A stretch of 64,000 bases of DNA, from NCBI GenBank assembly GCA_051877895.1, contig JBJEJI010000076.1, forward strand, positions 3,671 to 67,670. Direction: 5' to 3'. This document shows, in pieces, positions 17,929-40,313 of the stretch; position 1 is the stretch's first letter, and each line of letters begins with the position of its first letter. The notes below the pieces were generated by a model, which had not been told where the DNA came from, did no database searches, and saw only the letters and a list, made by a program, of their open reading frames with translations. The position numbers and the translations under genes were made by a program. The stretch comes from Lachnospiraceae bacterium (lineage in GTDB: Bacteria; Bacillota; Clostridia; Lachnospirales; Lachnospiraceae).

Positions 17929-18606
17929 TTAAATGGCATTTTCATCCACTTCCGGTCTTCCAAGCATTACTTCCAGATTTCCGTTTCTTTCCCTTATTGC
18001 ATCAAGAAATTCTTTCTGCTTATCTGTATTTTTCAGAACAATCTCATATTTAAGCTTATACATGCTGCCCATATTTGTGGTTCTGACCTTACAAAGCTCT
18101 GCATTCTTTGTATACTCTGAAAAAAGATCATCAAAGATTTCTGTATAATCCAGATTTTCCGGAATAACAATGGTGAGAGTCTTTACATTCTCTGCCGGAG
18201 TTCCCAGACCCATTGTAAGATATAATATGGAAAGCAGGGAAACCACTACAGTAAAAAGAATTGCCACTCCAATGTATCCTGTTCCGCAGCAAAGACCGAT
18301 TACCATGGCAAAGAAAATGCTGCCGATTTCCTTAGCGGTTCCCGGCTGGGAACGAAATCTTGTCAGACTGAAGGCTCCCGCCACTGCAATTCCGGTACCG
18401 ATATTTCCGTTTACCATTAATATTATAATGGTTACCATTACGGGAAGCAGGGAAAGTGTAATCACATAACTCTGAGAACATTTTGTTCTGTACATATGTA
18501 CCAGAGCAATACAAAGTCCCAGAATCAATGCAGTTACAAAACACAGAAGAAAACTTGTAAAATTAATTCCTGTAGCACCTATTACCGAATTTAATATTTT
18601 ATCCAT
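17929..18606 (-). CDS. DUF4956-like polytopic membrane protein with a C-terminal soluble domain
   Basis: 225 aa with 4-5 predicted TM helices followed by an ~85-aa hydrophilic domain. The family assignment is from memory of the usual VTC-DUF4956 gene pairing. Confidence 0.65.
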   Translation of the reverse strand: MDKILNSVIGATGINFTSFLLCFVTALILGLCIALVHMYRTKCSQSYVITLSLLPVMVTIIILMVNGNIGTGIAVAGAFSLTRFRSQPGTAKEIGSIFFAMVIGLCCGTGYIGVAILFTVVVSLLSILYLTMGLGTPAENVKTLTIVIPENLDYTEIFDDLFSEYTKNAELCKVRTTNMGSMYKLKYEIVLKNTDKQKEFLDAIRERNGNLEVMLGRPEVDENAI

Positions 18607-18630
18607 TTATTATTAATCCTCCTCAGTTAC

Positions 18631-19332
18631 TTACTTTAGGTAAAATGTTTTGTATGCCATTCCATACTTAGAAAAAGATACGGGATATATCTGAAGTTCT
18701 TCCAGAATTCTGACAAATGACAGTGGCAATGAAGTACATGTCTTAACTTCCATAAGCACCTGTCCATCTGTAAAAAGTCTTTTCCCATCCGGTGTATCAA
18801 AAAATGTAATGTTATCCGTTCTCCATTGTATGTCAAAGTCAAAGGTCAGTCTTACATTTCTGTCATTTTCCAAAACGTAAGAAAGTCTTTTATAACTCAG
18901 ATACATTGCCGGCACAAGGTTTCCATAATACCTTACAAACCATGCCAGTTCCCTTGCAATCTGGGAGTCCGGTTTATCCGGCGGATTAGCAAGAAATTCC
19001 TGAGCCCTGACTACATTCATTTTTTCTCTTCGTTTATAAACAATTCCGTTGTACTTTTTCTTGATTTCCAGATAAGCATCGCTTTCCGGTGTAACCCGGT
19101 TATAACACCGTAGTCTGAGTTTTTCCTTATAAACCGGCTTATCGACAGACTCCCTTATGAGCCTGTAATTCGGGGTATCATAGTAAATGTTCTGAACCAT
19201 ACAGCTAAAATATTCATCCGGTATTAAAGCCGTGCCAAGCTTCTCTTTTAAGTTACGGAACTGCTCAGCCGTAAGCAGATACTTTCTTTCGCATCTTTTA
19301 AAAATTCTTATATCACTCATTTTGTCTGCCAC
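18631..19332 (-). CDS. VTC-domain (polyphosphate polymerase-like, triphosphate-tunnel) protein
   Basis: 233 aa. The FKRCERKYLL N-terminus and alternating K/R/E beta-strand pattern (YLEIKKKYNGIVYKRR, LMEVK) are typical of CYTH/VTC tunnel folds. The start is uncertain (GTG at 19332 or ATG at 19320). Confidence 0.7.
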   Translation of the reverse strand: MADKMSDIRIFKRCERKYLLTAEQFRNLKEKLGTALIPDEYFSCMVQNIYYDTPNYRLIRESVDKPVYKEKLRLRCYNRVTPESDAYLEIKKKYNGIVYKRREKMNVVRAQEFLANPPDKPDSQIARELAWFVRYYGNLVPAMYLSYKRLSYVLENDRNVRLTFDFDIQWRTDNITFFDTPDGKRLFTDGQVLMEVKTCTSLPLSFVRILEELQIYPVSFSKYGMAYKTFYLK

Positions 19333-19383
19333 AAATCCTTGAAGGTACTCTTCGGATTTCCATCTTTCCTACTGTGTATCTGT

Positions 19384-19432
19384 ATAATAAAGTATGAAAC
19401 TAAAATTTAGTTAATGTTTTACCTAATGTTTA
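19384..19432 (-). promoter_or_regulatory. promoter of the VTC operon with three ~11-bp direct repeats (TAAACATTAGG TAAAACATTAAC TAAATTTTAGT)-9 nt-TATTAT
   Basis: Read directly on the minus strand. The proximal box and its 9-nt distance to the -10 hexamer match the response-regulator promoter at 21426-21451. Confidence 0.5.
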
Positions 19433-20719
19433 CTTAAAATTTACACGAAAAAGTATACTTTTACAATCCTCTGTTTCCACATTTATAGACATATTTTTAT
19501 GAGAAGCAACAATTGCCTCTGCCACAGAGAGTCCGATTCCGCTTCCGCCGGTTTCTCTGCTTCTGGATTTATCGATACGATAAAATCTTTCAAACAGTTT
19601 TGGCAATTCATCCCTGTTAAAACTATGGCAGGTGTTATATATTTCCAGTGTAGTATTTTTATGACCACTTTTCAGGCTGACACAGATTTTACCCTTTTCG
19701 TTAACATATTTAACTGCATTGTCCATAAGTATGGAAATAAGCTGTCTTACACCTGCCTCATCTCCATTAAAAAGAATTCCCTCCTCAAAGCTGCTTTCAA
19801 AAGTAACCCCTTTATTTTCTGCCGGTGTTTTAAAGGACAGTGCCACATCTGCTGCGGCATCACTTAGATTGAATTCCTCGGTAACGAATTTAATGCGGTC
19901 CTCATCCATTTTTGCAAGATAAACCATATCATTTACCAGCTTTGTCATTCTTCGGGTCTGTTTTTTAATGCTGTCTGTCCATTCATTTTTTCCTTCAGTC
20001 AGTTCAAGCACCTCAAGATTTGCCAGAATAATAGTCAGTGGTGTCTTTAATTCATGACTGGCATCGGTAATAAACTGCTTCTGCTTTGCATTACTTTCCA
20101 CAACAGGCTTAACCACTTTTTGGGAAAGAATACTCAGAATAATCACTTCAACCACAAGGCTTATAAAAGCCACTGCAACGGAAATCATCAAAAGCTCCCT
20201 GCAGCCTGTATATTCCTTGGAACAATCCAGATAGACAAGCATTTTTGAATCGGAAGAAGTTATAATTCGGTAATAATAATCACCGTCCCAGCCCTTTTCT
20301 TTGCCGGAAGAAATGATTTCTTCCGTAACTGAAACCGCTGTTTCTTCATTAAACCTTGCTGTATTGTCCAAATTGACTGTTGTTATATCTCCGGAAGTAT
20401 CTATTGTTGCAGTAAAAAACCTGGTTATATATTTGGTTTCCTCTGACAAATCCGGATTATGCTTTTTTATGGCATTGTTATAATCCGGCATTTGGTCTTT
20501 GTTGTCCGGTTTCATTTGAGGCATGGTTTCAAATTCCGGAATTTTTCCACCATTCATGGAAATAAGCTCAATCATTCCGTTAATTGAATCCATAGTATTG
20601 AAATAGTGAACCATATTAATCATGCCTACTACAATAACAGTAACAATAAAGATTGCCAGCATGGCAAACGATACGAAATGTATTCTTAACTGATTTAACA
20701 GTTTTCTGTTGCTCTCCAT
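19430..20719 (-). CDS. sensor histidine kinase
   Basis: The ORF track gives 19430-20827. I prefer M37 (MESNRKLL...), which sits 2 nt after the RR stop and behind AAGGAG. It has two TM helices flanking a ~140-aa extracytoplasmic domain, an H-box SHELKTPLT and an HATPase domain. Confidence 0.9.
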   Translation of the reverse strand: MESNRKLLNQLRIHFVSFAMLAIFIVTVIVVGMINMVHYFNTMDSINGMIELISMNGGKIPEFETMPQMKPDNKDQMPDYNNAIKKHNPDLSEETKYITRFFTATIDTSGDITTVNLDNTARFNEETAVSVTEEIISSGKEKGWDGDYYYRIITSSDSKMLVYLDCSKEYTGCRELLMISVAVAFISLVVEVIILSILSQKVVKPVVESNAKQKQFITDASHELKTPLTIILANLEVLELTEGKNEWTDSIKKQTRRMTKLVNDMVYLAKMDEDRIKFVTEEFNLSDAAADVALSFKTPAENKGVTFESSFEEGILFNGDEAGVRQLISILMDNAVKYVNEKGKICVSLKSGHKNTTLEIYNTCHSFNRDELPKLFERFYRIDKSRSRETGGSGIGLSVAEAIVASHKNMSINVETEDCKSILFRVNFK

Positions 20720-20721
20720 GA

Positions 20722-21396
20722 TTACTCCTTTATTTTCAGTGTATATCCGATTCCTCTGACTGCTGTTATTACAACTATACTTTCCATCTGAGCCAGTTTC
20801 TTTCTGAGTGAAGATATGGTAACCCACACAACATTTAACTCTACATCAGCATCATATCCCCAAATTTTATCTAAAAGTCTTTCTGTGGAAATCAGGGTGC
20901 CGGGCTGACTCATAAAGGTTTCCATAACCTGAAACTCCTTGTGGGTTAATCGGAAACTTCTTCCGTTTCCTGAAAGTGCGGCTGCAGATAAATTCAATTC
21001 AATATCTCCAAATCTGACATTGTCCGGCACAATATCCCCTTTACGTCTGGTAATTGCCCTCAGTCTTGCCAACAATTCCTGCATGACAAAAGGCTTTGGG
21101 AGGTAGTCATCCGCACCTGCATCCAGTCCCTCAATGCGGTCTTCCACTTCTCCTTTTGCAGTCAGAAGAATAACAGGGGTAGAAATGCCTTTCTGACGCA
21201 TTTTTTTCAACGCAGTAAGCCCATCCATGACAGGCATCATAATGTCCAGAATAATACCGTCATACTCTGTATTAACTGCATAATCATATGCATCTGCTCC
21301 ATTATACACCGCATCAACAGTATAATTATTTTTCGTCAGAACCGCCGTTAATGCACTGGACAGGTCCTTTTCATCTTCAGCCAGTAATAATCGCAT
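20722..21396 (-). CDS. OmpR/PhoB-family response regulator
   Basis: The ORF track gives 20722-21408. I prefer M5 (MRLLLAEDE...). It has a receiver domain and a winged-helix C-terminus. Confidence 0.92.
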   Translation of the reverse strand: MRLLLAEDEKDLSSALTAVLTKNNYTVDAVYNGADAYDYAVNTEYDGIILDIMMPVMDGLTALKKMRQKGISTPVILLTAKGEVEDRIEGLDAGADDYLPKPFVMQELLARLRAITRRKGDIVPDNVRFGDIELNLSAAALSGNGRSFRLTHKEFQVMETFMSQPGTLISTERLLDKIWGYDADVELNVVWVTISSLRKKLAQMESIVVITAVRGIGYTLKIKE

Positions 21397-21425
21397 ATTA
21401 GCCCCCATAACATTTATTTTTTATG

Positions 21426-21502: not shown

Positions 21503-23791
21503 TTATCTGCCTGCTTTTTCCCTCAGCTCACGACGCTTGATTTTACCGCTTACTGTTTTAGGAAGTTCATCTACAAATTCTACAATACGTGGATATTTGT
21601 ATGGTGCAGTATGGGTTTTAACATAGGTCTGAATTTCTTTTTTAAGTTCTTCCGACGGTTCTTTGCCGCCTACAAGAACGATGGTTGCTTTAACAATCTG
21701 CCCTCTCACTTCATCAGGAACTGCAGTAATGGCACATTCCAGAACATAAGGTAGCTCCATAATAACGGACTCAATTTCAAATGGTCCGATTCTGTAGCCG
21801 GAGGACTTGATAACATCATCAATTCGTCCAACAAAGCGTATGCAGCCCTCTTCATCAAACCAAGCCTGATCACCGGTATGATAATAACCATCATGCCATA
21901 CCGATGCAGTTTTTTCTTCGTTATTGTAGTATCCGTTAAAAAGACCTATTGCATAGCCGTCTCTGTCTGCCTTTACACAGATTTCGCCTGTTTCACCTGT
22001 CTTACACTCATTTCCTTCTTCATCCAGAATGTGAATGTCATAAAGCGGATTCGGTCTGCCCATGGAGCCAACCTTTGGAGGATTTCCAATAAAGTTACCT
22101 ACCAGCACTGCAGTTTCTGTCTGGCCGTAGCCCTCCATAATCCCCAGATTTGTTGCATCCATGAAACGGTCATATACTTCAGGATTAAGTGCTTCACCTG
22201 CCGTGGAAACATGTTCCAGACCGGATAAATCATAATGGCTTAAATCCTGCTTGATTAACATACGATAAATAGTTGTTGGTGTACACAGAGTTGTGATGCC
22301 ATACTTGGCAAACATAGGCATCAAATCCTCAGCATGAAATCTTTCATAATCATAGGCAAAGAGACCTGCCTCGCACATCCATGGCCCGTAGAGCTTGCCC
22401 CACAGAGACATAATCCAGCCTGTATCTGAAATGGTAAAATGCAGACCATCAGGATTTACGCTAAACCAGTACTTTGCTGTAATATAACTTGCAAGAGGAT
22501 AGGTGTGTGCATGTACTGCAATATTCGGATATCCAGTTGTTCCGGAAGTAAACATCATAAGCATAGGATCATTTCCGCACGGAGTGTCAGGCTTTCTGTC
22601 ATAAACATCATTATGAAGAATCATTTCTCCGTTAAAATCATGCCAGCCTTCACGCTGTTCTCCTACCAGAACTTTAATCATATCCGGAAATTCCCTGCAT
22701 GCCAGTTCGGCCTGATGTGCTATGTCACCGGATGAAGTGATTACGATTGCCTTAATGCCTGCCGCCTTATATCTATAGGTAAGGTCATGTTCCAGAAGCT
22801 GATTTACAGCAGGAATTGCTATGGCTCCCATTTTATGGAGTGCAAGCATGGTAAACCAGTATTGATACTGTTTTTTCAAAATAACAAGAACCCTGTCTCC
22901 CTTTTTAATTCCGATGGATTCAAAATAATTTGCAGTCATGTTGGAATACTTCTTCATATCTGCGAAGGTAAAGGCATGGTCATTTTTCTTCTCGCCTACC
23001 CACATCAGAGCAGTTTTATTCGGACATTTATCTGCCAGCTTATCAACGATGTCAAAAGCAAAATTGAACTTTTCAGTGTTTTTAAAAGTAACCTTTTTCA
23101 GTGCACCCTTTTCATCATCTTCAGTTTCAATATACTTATCGGATACAGTAGCCTTCTTTCTTTCAGCCTTGTACTGCTCAATATTGGTTTCATGGACAAC
23201 ATAGGAATTATCATCCGGCGTCGGTTTGATTACAATGGCATAAATTACACAGTCTTTTCCATCCAGTGCACGATTGGAGTGAGGAATGCCGGAATTATAA
23301 TAAATAGTATCTCCCGGAGAAAGAATCTCGACCTTGTCACCAAGCTGAATCATCATACGGCCTTTTACAACAATATCAATCTCATGTCCTTTGTGGGAAG
23401 AAAAATGAACTTCTTCGTCATCTGTATACGGAATGGTAACATAAAACGGCTCTGCAAGCTTATTTTTAAAATCCGGAGCAAGGTTTAGATACTCAAAACC
23501 TGTTCTTCTTGTAATGGGAAGTCCCTCACCTTTACGGGTTACGGTATAGAGAGAAAGTGTTGCACTCTCCCCTTCCAAAAGGTCTTTAATGTCCACACCA
23601 AAAACATTGGCACATTTAAAAATAAAAGTAAAATTAAAATCGGACTGTCCCTGTTCGAGAATGTGGTATTCTTCCTCCGTCACACCTGTTTTTTCCGCCA
23701 TCTGTGCTTCAGTAAGCCCCGCAATTTCTCTGGCAGCCTTAATTCGGGTTGCGATTTCCAGTAATTCTTTGTCAACAATCTTCTTATTCAT
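21503..23791 (-). CDS. fusion protein: XRE-family HTH + cupin domain + AMP-forming acyl-CoA synthetase (adenylate-forming enzyme)
   Basis: Single 762-aa ORF. Residues 1-70 form an HTH_3-like domain (ATRIKAAREIAGLTEAQMAEKTGVTEEEY). Residues ~110-190 form a cupin (GHEIDIVVKG...GDTIYYNSGIPH). Residues ~235-762 form an ANL enzyme (TSGTTGYP, YGQTE, GYYHTGD, SGKIKR). There is no internal Met between the domains. Confidence 0.85.
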   Translation of the reverse strand: MNKKIVDKELLEIATRIKAAREIAGLTEAQMAEKTGVTEEEYHILEQGQSDFNFTFIFKCANVFGVDIKDLLEGESATLSLYTVTRKGEGLPITRRTGFEYLNLAPDFKNKLAEPFYVTIPYTDDEEVHFSSHKGHEIDIVVKGRMMIQLGDKVEILSPGDTIYYNSGIPHSNRALDGKDCVIYAIVIKPTPDDNSYVVHETNIEQYKAERKKATVSDKYIETEDDEKGALKKVTFKNTEKFNFAFDIVDKLADKCPNKTALMWVGEKKNDHAFTFADMKKYSNMTANYFESIGIKKGDRVLVILKKQYQYWFTMLALHKMGAIAIPAVNQLLEHDLTYRYKAAGIKAIVITSSGDIAHQAELACREFPDMIKVLVGEQREGWHDFNGEMILHNDVYDRKPDTPCGNDPMLMMFTSGTTGYPNIAVHAHTYPLASYITAKYWFSVNPDGLHFTISDTGWIMSLWGKLYGPWMCEAGLFAYDYERFHAEDLMPMFAKYGITTLCTPTTIYRMLIKQDLSHYDLSGLEHVSTAGEALNPEVYDRFMDATNLGIMEGYGQTETAVLVGNFIGNPPKVGSMGRPNPLYDIHILDEEGNECKTGETGEICVKADRDGYAIGLFNGYYNNEEKTASVWHDGYYHTGDQAWFDEEGCIRFVGRIDDVIKSSGYRIGPFEIESVIMELPYVLECAITAVPDEVRGQIVKATIVLVGGKEPSEELKKEIQTYVKTHTAPYKYPRIVEFVDELPKTVSGKIKRRELREKAGR

Positions 23792-23859
23792 TACAACCTC
23801 CGGGTAAATTCATATATCTGCATTCTGTTCTTTTTAACCAACTATCAGTTTCTAAATCT

Positions 23860-24102
23860 CCGTAGTGAAAGTATCAGAAAGCTCGTAAGCTTCGCTTTAC
23901 TTCTCGCTTCGCGAATATCCGGGAAAGCTTCGCTTTACTTCTCGCTTCGCGAATATCCGGGAAAGCTTCGCTTTCCACGTAGTAACGCAACCTCGTAAGC
24001 TTCGCTTACTCGGTCGCGTTACTACGTGGGAACAGTTACAAACTCTTTCAGGAATAAATTCCTGACGAGTTTTTAACTGTTCCCACTACGGATATTCGCG
24101 AA
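23860..24102. repeat. composite block of tandem and nested inverted repeats (REP/MITE-like, non-coding)
   Basis: Two full 38-bp units agcttcgctttacttctcgcttcgcgaatatccgggaa at 23888-23925 and 23926-23963, plus a partial third. Inverted repeats: ccacgtagtaacgc/gcgttactacgtgg (23975/24015), gaacagttacaaactc.../...gagtttttaactgttc (24030-24082), ccgtagtg/cactacgg (23860/24084) and ttcgcgaatatcc/ggatattcgcgaa. Confidence 0.85.
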
Positions 24103-24360
24103 AAAAAACGCCCCAAGCATACAATTTATTGTATGCTTGAGACGAACATAATCCGCGGTACCACTCAACTTGCACTTTCGTGCCTCTTAACGAACTCCAA
24201 CAAGTCCTTTGCTTTTACGCAGCAAGTACGGGAAACGTCTACTGGCATTTCTGCGTTGGGGTTTCCGGCTCAGAAGGGATGGGCTTGTTGAACAGCCTGC
24301 TGTCGGTTCACACCATCCACCGACTCTCTGAAAACACTTTATTCAGCCTTCTTCGTCACA
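24101..24360 (-). promoter_or_regulatory. T-box leader (tRNA-sensing transcription attenuator)
   Basis: The minus strand carries the stem I elements CAGAGAGUCGGUGG...GGUGUGAACCGA (24318-24330 region). The conserved T-box sequence GAGUGGUACCGCGG is at 24153-24166. The terminator cucaagcauacaau-aaa-uuguaugcuugggg plus U8 is at 24101-24141. Confidence 0.8.
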
Positions 24361-24407
24361 GCCTTTATTATCTATTAAATTTTAAATATTTTTTTCTGCT
24401 GTCTATC

Positions 24408-24436
24408 AATATAGCACATTTAACAATTCAGGTCAA
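24408..24436 (-). promoter_or_regulatory. promoter of the T-box leader (TTGACC-17-TGcTATATT)
   Basis: Minus strand reads cttgacctgaattgttaaatgtgctatatt. Confidence 0.55.
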
Positions 24437-40224: not shown

Positions 40225-40275
40225 CAAAATGCGGACTGCTAAAAAAAGAAATGAAGCATACATAATAGTAAAAAA

Positions 40276-40299
40276 GGCTCCGGGAATATTCCCGGAACC
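40276..40299. terminator. hairpin between convergent spoIIID and the DUF3810 gene
   Basis: ggctccggg-aatatt-cccggaacc with an A-tract before it. Confidence 0.55.
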
Positions 40300-40313
40300 T
40301 TTCCACAAGGCAT

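Follow-up and report, generated by a model that had tools for sequence, protein, structure and literature searches.

An isoleucine-specifying T-box leader ahead of a helix-turn-helix-cupin-acyl-CoA synthetase fusion in a Lachnospiraceae bacterium: a probable link between tRNA charging and branched-acid activation

The stretch of DNA considered here, hereafter the window, comprises 64,000 nucleotides from a Lachnospiraceae bacterium (GenBank assembly GCA_051877895.1, contig JBJEJI010000076.1, positions 3,671 to 67,670). Its minus strand carries a T-box leader with an isoleucine specifier, and the next gene on that strand encodes a 762-residue protein, hereafter the ligase, in which a helix-turn-helix (HTH) domain and a cupin domain are fused to an AMP-forming acyl-CoA synthetase. 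We propose, with a probability of about 0.7, that the isoleucine-specific T-box controls a ligase of the MacsMa/MbcS type, which activates a precursor acid of isoleucine for reductive carboxylation. The evidence comes from the anatomy of the leader, from the conservation of the leader-ligase pair in other Clostridia, from the division of the ligases into isoleucine and valine classes, and from the genes that accompany them.

The leader is recognized by the Rfam T-box model RF00230. In a search of 1 kb at an E-value threshold, the model matched positions 24368-24135 over its whole length (model positions 1-219 of 219), scoring 83.3 bits at E=2.4e-18. Because this score is under the curated Rfam gathering score of 93, a scan of the whole window at the gathering threshold missed the T-box. 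The homologous leaders of relatives score 94.6-112.2 bits and are over the gathering score. Within the window, the core TGGNACCRCG occurs only once. The 5' strand of the terminator reuses the 3' strand of the antiterminator (CUCA...), and the two pairings are mutually exclusive. Among 24 distinct leaders of the isoleucine class, the basal GAAG/CUUC helix of stem I shows no variation, and above the specifier loop the helix that is GGCU/AGCC in the window covaries through C-G, U-A, U-G and A-U pairs. Strong covariation is also seen in the distal helix of stem I. This distal helix was the only one found by RNAalifold on MAFFT alignments of stem I, and the helices next to the specifier were counted by anchored patterns instead. 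The original prediction, made from the letters of the DNA, had placed a promoter, the AGAGAG, distal and core motifs and a terminator with eight U residues on the minus strand, and all of them were found there; its T-box call likewise stands, the covariance-model match being significant and full-length, though below the gathering score. Overall, the leader is by its sequence a real, transcription-attenuating T-box that looks functional. The RNA itself is ordinary, belonging to a known family with a known mechanism. A tRNA scan of the window found no tRNA gene.

The specifier was read from a comparative alignment of 109 leaders, each located ahead of a ligase open reading frame (ORF) of about 760 codons. 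The canonical register consists of NNN, one nucleotide, the 3' strand of the basal helix and YGAGC. In this register AUC is found in 43 leaders, that of the window included, and GUA or GUC in 64 paralogous leaders, while one leader reads GGA and one could not be aligned. AUC is kept in 43/43 leaders of its class, and the flanking nucleotides vary (C, U or A before it and A, C or G after it). The register is fixed because a shift of +1 would yield UAG or UAA in the valine class. Registers giving CAU and UAU are ruled out by the variability of the preceding base, and one giving UCN by the stop codons that the equivalent shift creates in the valine class. The covariance-model alignment, which treats 'ucc' as an insertion, would give GCC; this reading was dropped in favor of the comparative alignment. 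Leaders on the opposite strand in four loci (L010, L023, L058 and L075) read CUC (Leu) in the same register, and these precede a 2-isopropylmalate-synthase-like (leuA-like) gene and so provide an internal positive control. The specifier of the glyQS leader, which we take to be GGC-A-CUUC-GAGC, would be in this register as well. The UGGU of the T-box bulge implies a discriminator A, which is compatible with tRNA-Ile. Judged by the alignment, the specifier of the window is AUC, for isoleucine, in conformity with the T-box 'C rule' (PMC7583486).

The original prediction had tentatively read the specifier as AAC, for asparagine. This triplet is present at 24289-24287, in the 3' strand of stem I, but it is not part of the specifier loop; it falls in an internal bulge that is located above the GGCU/AGCC helix and is not conserved, the closest relatives having GAAU and AAAA there. 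AUC, in contrast, is invariant in the canonical register, and the asparagine reading retains practically no credibility. The leader with GGA is found in L062 (1092-1330; 105 bits), ahead of a ligase of the valine clade, where GUA would be the usual reading, with two tRNA genes just upstream (753-974). Either a mutation of the specifier or an error of alignment could account for it.

The association of this leader with this ligase extends well beyond the window. Proteins with the HTH-cupin-ligase architecture abound in Clostridia, with at least 7973 matches in a protein search, and the best 120 of these are almost all full-length proteins with that architecture. Eighty species-representative genome loci with ligase homologues 54-64% identical were fetched, from rumen and gut metagenome-assembled genomes and isolates of Acutalibacteraceae, Christensenellales, Ruminococcus and others. 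A T-box core is present in 76 of the 80, and nearly always one closely precedes the ligase in the same orientation. In 108 leader-ligase pairs the median distance from the core to the ATG is 93.5 nt; in the window it is 372 nt. The closest relatives of the window are the loci L081 and L082, whose ligases are 89% and 84% identical to that of the window. Their leaders are nearly base-for-base identical to the leader of the window, and the U-run of the terminator is 12-60 nt from the ATG. The arrangement for which the original prediction had proposed to look in relatives, a T-box directly abutting the ligase with no repeats between them, is thus what both loci possess. The prediction had also named the next gene on the strand, beginning at 23791, as an HTH-cupin-AMP-forming ligase, and Pfam verifies these domains. 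Its suggestion that an adenylate-forming enzyme with an amino-acid-related substrate is regulated by tRNA gains support from the pairing in 76/80 loci, from the abutment in the relatives and from the agreement between specifier and ligase phylogeny described below. Overall, it is very probable that an isoleucine-specific T-box ancestrally controls this ligase.

The specifiers divide the ligases into two classes that follow the phylogeny of the proteins. In a tree of 109 ligases, all 64 proteins with a valine specifier form a single clade together with two whose specifiers are unreadable, and the proteins with an isoleucine specifier make up the remainder. Every classified ligase has a nearest neighbor of its own specifier class. 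At 29 loci a ligase under an isoleucine T-box is followed in tandem by one under a valine T-box. Five alignment columns cleanly separate the two classes, and one of them is the residue after a conserved DTGW. The motif at this place is GWGK in 40/43 ligases of the isoleucine class, as in MacsMa, and GWAK in 64/64 ligases of the valine class. The remaining three, the ligases of the window, L081 and L082, have GWIM and are referred to below as the window clade. Additionally, a second ligase ORF of about 770 codons follows in L018 (6248-8566), L036 (6263-8575) and L072 (3941-6268), with almost no gap. This second ORF lacks its own T-box and is presumably transcribed together with the first ORF, under the leader of the latter.

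The catalytic part of the ligase provides further indications of its substrate. Its best match among known structures is MacsMa (PDB 3ETC), with E 8.8e-181, 606 bits and 50% identity over 520 residues, and the next family of PDB structures reaches 375 bits. The hallmark glycine that in MacsMa replaces the acetate-restricting tryptophan (Trp416 of AcsMt) is present, in GYGQTE in the window and GFGQTE in MacsMa, as is the alternate tryptophan (Trp259 of MacsMa), in KYW in both. The roles of these residues have been described, and MacsMa favors 2-methylbutyrate (PMC10455477). The best NCBIfam model is MbcS (NF047394) with 431.8 bits, far under the equivalog cut-off of 850, so the ligase is a relative of MbcS and not an equivalog. 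MbcS, the methylbutyryl-CoA synthetase of Staphylococcus aureus, activates 2-methylbutyrate and isobutyrate (PMC10026030). The ligase thus appears to be a MacsMa/MbcS-type synthetase for small branched acids. Its most likely substrate is 2-methylbutyrate, and propionate is possible for the window clade. Since a terminator-like hairpin directly follows the gene, the T-box unit looks monocistronic.

In many other genomes the ligases stand beside genes that suggest a pathway. A gene for a ParA/CbiA-like P-loop protein lies directly after the ligase or ligase pair in 41/83 loci, and in 38 of these 41 there is also an alpha subunit of a 2-oxoacid:ferredoxin oxidoreductase, with the beta and gamma subunits next to it where the fetched flank is long enough. 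The alpha subunit of L010 clears the NCBIfam cut-off for VorB (3-methyl-2-oxobutanoate dehydrogenase), scoring 552.7 vs 399. Taken with the isoleucine and valine specifiers and the GWGK/GWAK motif, this linkage to vorB suggests that the ligases prefer 2-methylbutyrate or isobutyrate. The P-loop protein, of 220 residues and related to ParA, CbiA and NUBPL (6477-7142 in L010, with equivalents in 41 loci), always lies between the last ligase and the VorB-type genes. It matches no NCBIfam family and could be a factor for the delivery or maturation of Fe-S clusters. Additionally, a divergent CUC (Leu) T-box adjoins the ligases with isoleucine and valine T-boxes in L010 (620-861, minus strand), L023 (632-872, minus strand), L058 and L075, which places three T-boxes for branched-chain amino acids within about 4 kb.

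T-boxes switch genes on in response to uncharged tRNA, AMP-forming ligases drive the activation of acids, and a ferredoxin-dependent VOR can carboxylate. From these properties it follows that 2-methylbutyrate and isobutyrate may be salvaged into isoleucine and valine by reductive carboxylation. In the proposed mechanism, the leader would be transcribed from the promoter at 24436-24408, and the AUC of stem I would read the GAU anticodon of tRNA-Ile. The ACCA end of uncharged tRNA-Ile would pair with the UGGU bulge and stabilize the antiterminator. RNA polymerase would then pass the terminator at 24144-24101, cross a folded 5' untranslated region (UTR) of 309 nt and transcribe the ligase gene. 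The ligase would convert the isoleucine precursor acid into its CoA thioester, which a VorB-type oxidoreductase would reductively carboxylate to the 2-oxo acid, and transamination would yield isoleucine. This function in making isoleucine from an isoacid is probable, somewhat less firmly so than the control of the ligase by the T-box. An analogous carboxylation, that of isovalerate to leucine, is mentioned in the literature (PMC7356843).

Table 1. Positions in the window of the leader, the region downstream of it and the ligase gene.
Feature	Position	Strand	Basis
Sigma-70-type promoter: TTGACC, 17-nt spacer, extended TG, TATATT	24408..24436	-	10/12 hexamer matches, TG present; kept in L081 and L082
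T-box leader RNA: stem I, stem II, IIA/B pseudoknot region, stem III, antiterminator	24135..24368	-	Rfam RF00230
Stem I, in order: GA/K-turn strands UGUGAC...UGAGCC, GAAG/CUUC, specifier loop, GGCU/AGCC, AG bulge, distal loop	24267..24360	-	sequence and covariance-model alignment
AG bulge AGAGAG	24329-24324	-	sequence, covariance-model alignment
Distal loop GGUGUGAA	24314-24307	-	sequence, covariance-model alignment
Specifier codon AUC (Ile), then one nucleotide (C), then CUUC strand of basal helix	24278..24280	-	comparative alignment
T-box core GAGUGGUACCGCGG	24166-24153	-	sequence
Antiterminator: helix UGAG/CUCA, 7-nt bulge UGGUACC (24163-24157), upper helix	24138..24167	-	covariance-model alignment
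Intrinsic terminator: 16-bp stem (24144-24109), 4-nt loop, U8 (24108-24101)	24101..24144	-	
Inserted repeat block, about 220 nt	23879..24102	-	repeat analysis, comparison with L081 and L082
Outer 14-nt inverted repeat	24089-24102 vs 23908-23921 and 23946-23959		
Hairpin with 20-nt arms	24026-24045/24067-24086		
Hairpin with 29-nt arms	23972-24000/24004-24032		
38-nt unit in tandem duplicate	23887-23962		
Non-repetitive spacer with ribosome-binding site GGAGG (23801-23797), 5 nt ahead of the ATG at 23791	23792..23878	-	sequence
HTH-cupin-ligase fusion, 762 residues	21503..23791	-	Pfam HTH_3/HTH_19, Cupin_2, AMP-binding, AMP-binding_C
XRE-type HTH, residues 13-76	23755-23564	-	
Cupin, residues 126-186	23416-23234	-	
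AMP-forming acyl-CoA synthetase, residues 252-750	23038-21542	-	
GWIM motif of the window clade, residues 457-461	22409-22423	-	
Terminator-like hairpin with U5, 6 nt past the ligase stop codon	21471..21497	-	

The region between the terminator and the ligase sets the window apart from its relatives (Table 1). The original prediction had described a gap of about 310 nt filled with repeats, and the distance from the U-run to the ATG is indeed 309 nt, occupied by nested inverted repeats and a tandem duplication of 38 nt. The two hairpins of the block are the longest inverted repeats of the whole window. Neither the window nor the ligase loci L001-L083 contain another copy of the block, and no match was found among plasmids or phages. 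For a 20-mer from one of the hairpins ("hairpin A"), JGI metagenomes yielded three isolated chance matches whose flanks show no similarity, and weak Rfam 'microRNA' matches within the block (MIR8001 and others) are plain hairpin artefacts. Because L081 and L082 have no block and carry the terminator near the ATG, the block is, from this comparison, an insertion private to the lineage of the window, and the pairing of T-box and ligase is ancestral. Long spacers between core and start codon also occur in L046 (3601-3995), L022 (3708-3974) and L076 (3781-3995), where they measure 214-394 nt and the inserts are unrelated sequences. That of L022 holds a duplicate copy of the 3' arm of the terminator.

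Several observations weigh against the proposed function in the window. The score of its leader is about 10 bits below the Rfam gathering score. The nucleotide 3' of the specifier is C and not the usual purine, and the specifier loop is reduced, with only 2 nt on its 5' side and without the usual AGUA/GAA S-turn. The 309-nt gap folds at -130.6 kcal/mol (z = -12.4) between the terminator and the ribosome-binding site, and such a structured insertion could impair read-through, stability or translation. The substrate of the window clade may differ from that of the other isoleucine-class ligases because GWIM replaces GWGK. Finally, no oxidoreductase homologue was detected in the window at E<1e-8, and none lies within 6 kb in L081 and L082, so the pathway partner is unobserved in this lineage.

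The insertion raises the question of whether the T-box still acts on the ligase. It could have been uncoupled, with transcripts that end at 24101 or undergo processing within the repeats and a ligase expressed from its own promoter in 23792-24100. The insertion is real and specific to the lineage, the distance from core to ATG is an outlier among the pairs, the 5' UTR is extremely structured, and a weak promoter-like stretch (TTGGTT ... TATATG) may, judged by eye, lie in the unique spacer. However, a consensus scan of the coding strand from 24100 to 23792 found no sigma-70-like promoter and no terminator-like site. The elements of the T-box are all intact and nearly identical to those of the insertion-free relatives, and spacers of 214-394 nt are tolerated in three other lineages. 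The ribosome-binding site of the ligase is intact as well. The original prediction had raised this orphaning by repeat insertion as its second reading; the lineage-specific insertion is borne out, but the pairing is ancestral and no promoter or terminator signal in the block shows orphaning. We regard uncoupling as unlikely and favor a T-box that would still govern the ligase by read-through across the insertion.

The remaining alternatives concern what the ligase makes. As MbcS is the best NCBIfam match and supplies FabH with 2-methylbutyryl-CoA and isobutyryl-CoA in S. aureus (PMC10026030), the ligase might produce branched acyl-CoA primers for the synthesis of branched-chain fatty acids for membrane lipids, and the T-box would then sense a shortage of primers derived from isoleucine. 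However, the match is far under the MbcS cut-off, and T-boxes report tRNA charging rather than lipid status. Moreover, the context is one of amino-acid supply, with paralogous ligases under separate isoleucine and valine T-boxes, a VorB-type oxidoreductase in the operon and a leuA-like neighbor under a leucine T-box, and a lipid function is quite improbable. A different acid within the same regulatory logic has a somewhat better, if still small, chance. Specifically, the ligase of the window clade may activate propionate or another small acid, and propionyl-CoA would be converted to 2-oxobutyrate and enter the ordinary ilv pathway to isoleucine. GWIM is found in the window, L081 and L082 where the other isoleucine-class ligases and MacsMa have GWGK, and no tandem valine ligase or vor genes are found nearby in this clade. 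The class-separating position presumably corresponds to Ile312, a pocket residue of the acetyl-CoA synthetase of M. thermautotrophicus, an enzyme whose pocket was reportedly studied by Ingram-Smith in 2006; if this mapping holds, a bulky isoleucine would shrink the pocket. The hallmarks of MacsMa are retained, however, and the assignment of the residue to the pocket is a presumed one. Activation of 2-methylbutyrate under an isoleucine T-box remains our preferred reading.

The N-terminal module of the ligase suggests a further layer of control. Residues 13-76 resemble the HTH domains of XRE/434-repressor proteins. The AlphaFold model of residues 1-215 has a mean pLDDT of 79, and its best structural matches are the HTH-cupin proteins HppE and 1Y9Q, with Foldseek E-values of about 1e-11 to 1e-10. 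The TM-scores to these proteins are low (0.33-0.40) because the orientation of the domains differs or is unmodelled. In the cupin (23234-23416, minus strand), His133, Gly135, Glu137, Asp139 and His171 are invariant across 49 homologues, and His133, Glu137 and His171 possibly form a 2-His-1-Glu metal triad like that of HppE. Tentatively, the fusion may be a 'trigger enzyme' whose HTH-cupin module binds DNA and senses either a metal or the branched acid, free or as its adenylate or CoA ester, as a second input beside the T-box. Together with the valine paralogue and VorB it would constitute a previously undescribed salvage pathway, a proposal to which we assign a low likelihood. BirA, a bifunctional adenylating enzyme and repressor, offers an analogy for such a fusion of HTH domain and ligase.

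The components of this system resemble several known ones. Like the T-boxes of Rfam RF00230, for example the isoleucine and valine leaders of aminoacyl-tRNA synthetase and ilv genes in Bacillota, which belong to the transcriptional class with stem II, the leader possesses all modules. These are the K-turn, specifier loop, AG bulge and distal loop, stem II, IIA/B, stem III, the 14-nt T-box with its UGGN bulge, and the competing terminator and antiterminator; a specifier ending in C is also shared. In contrast to those T-boxes, it has a reduced specifier loop and about 220 nt of repeats inserted past the terminator, and its target is an acyl-CoA synthetase fused to HTH and cupin domains rather than an aminoacyl-tRNA synthetase, a classical biosynthetic gene or a transporter. 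The premise of the original prediction, that T-boxes precede genes of those three kinds, is the textbook list, but the ligase is most likely an amino-acid supply gene itself. MacsMa, the medium-chain acyl-CoA synthetase of Methanosarcina acetivorans, prefers 2-methylbutyrate, is 50% identical to the ligase over 520 residues and shares the Gly and KYW hallmarks; it has no HTH-cupin module or T-box, and it has GWGK where the window clade has GWIM. MbcS selects the same two acids that are implied by the pairs of isoleucine and valine T-boxes, but it serves the supply of lipid primers, lacks the HTH-cupin module and has no known T-box control. The two-domain HTH and cupin architecture of the N-terminal 200 residues is shared with HppE (1ZZ6-1ZZ9) and the Vibrio cholerae HTH_3 regulator 1Y9Q, although similarity by TM-score is low and binding of DNA, metal and ligand by the module of the window is putative.

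The physiology of the proposed pathway has its own history. Allison, Bryant and Robinson reportedly described, in the 1960s-80s, how rumen anaerobes reductively carboxylate branched-chain fatty acids to obtain branched-chain amino acids. The sequence of steps would be the same, from acid to acyl-CoA, to 2-oxo acid by a ferredoxin oxidoreductase, and to amino acid, and the hosts are likewise rumen and gut Clostridia; that literature is physiological. In the searchable full-text literature no paper was found that connects T-boxes with these ligases, with vor genes or with the assimilation of isoacids, and none that assigns the ligase genes to such a route, although an earlier listing in T-box comparative genomics is possible. 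No T-box link to these ligases or vor genes was found in PMC3766115 either. Nor did the searchable literature yield a characterized precedent for an HTH-cupin-CoA ligase fusion. The target class and the pathway it marks appear new, and the RNA belongs to a known family.

The surroundings of the ligase gene are partly conserved. The order of ligase, response regulator, histidine kinase, VTC-domain protein and DUF4956 protein (17929-21408 in the window, minus strand) is common to the window, L081 and L082, and in the latter two a Cthe_2159-family protein comes next after DUF4956. The upstream neighbor is an ABC/FtsX transporter in the window and rubrerythrin with small unknown ORFs in L081 and L082. 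Elsewhere in the window, a ribosomal protein L10 leader (RF00557; 60814-60953, minus strand) scores 71.8 bits against a gathering score of 44 and is the sole Rfam match at the gathering threshold. A near-perfect palindrome of 30 nt at 40273-40302, AAAGGCTCCGGGAATATTCCCGGAACCTTT, is among the strongest of the window.

Anaerobes of the rumen and gut have long been known to use isobutyrate, 2-methylbutyrate and isovalerate to make valine, isoleucine and leucine, and these isoacids are required by many fiber degraders. The genes of the activation step are poorly defined in Clostridia. Specifier codons act here as natural tags, marking one ligase subfamily as under tRNA-Ile and its paralogue as under tRNA-Val. 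They offer a concrete gene assignment for the entire pathway in numerous uncultured species and in some cultured ones, such as Ruminococcaceae bacterium YRB3002 (L013). The T-box regulon would grow to include an acyl-CoA synthetase, and attention is drawn to an HTH-cupin-enzyme fusion that is very common. For annotation, the leader of the window is an example of a T-box that escapes the Rfam gathering score. If the ligase also proves to be a trigger enzyme, expression of the route would need two inputs, precursor availability through the protein and uncharged tRNA through the T-box, and this reading, together with the valine paralogue and VorB, would explain the classical requirement for isoacids among Clostridia of the rumen and gut.

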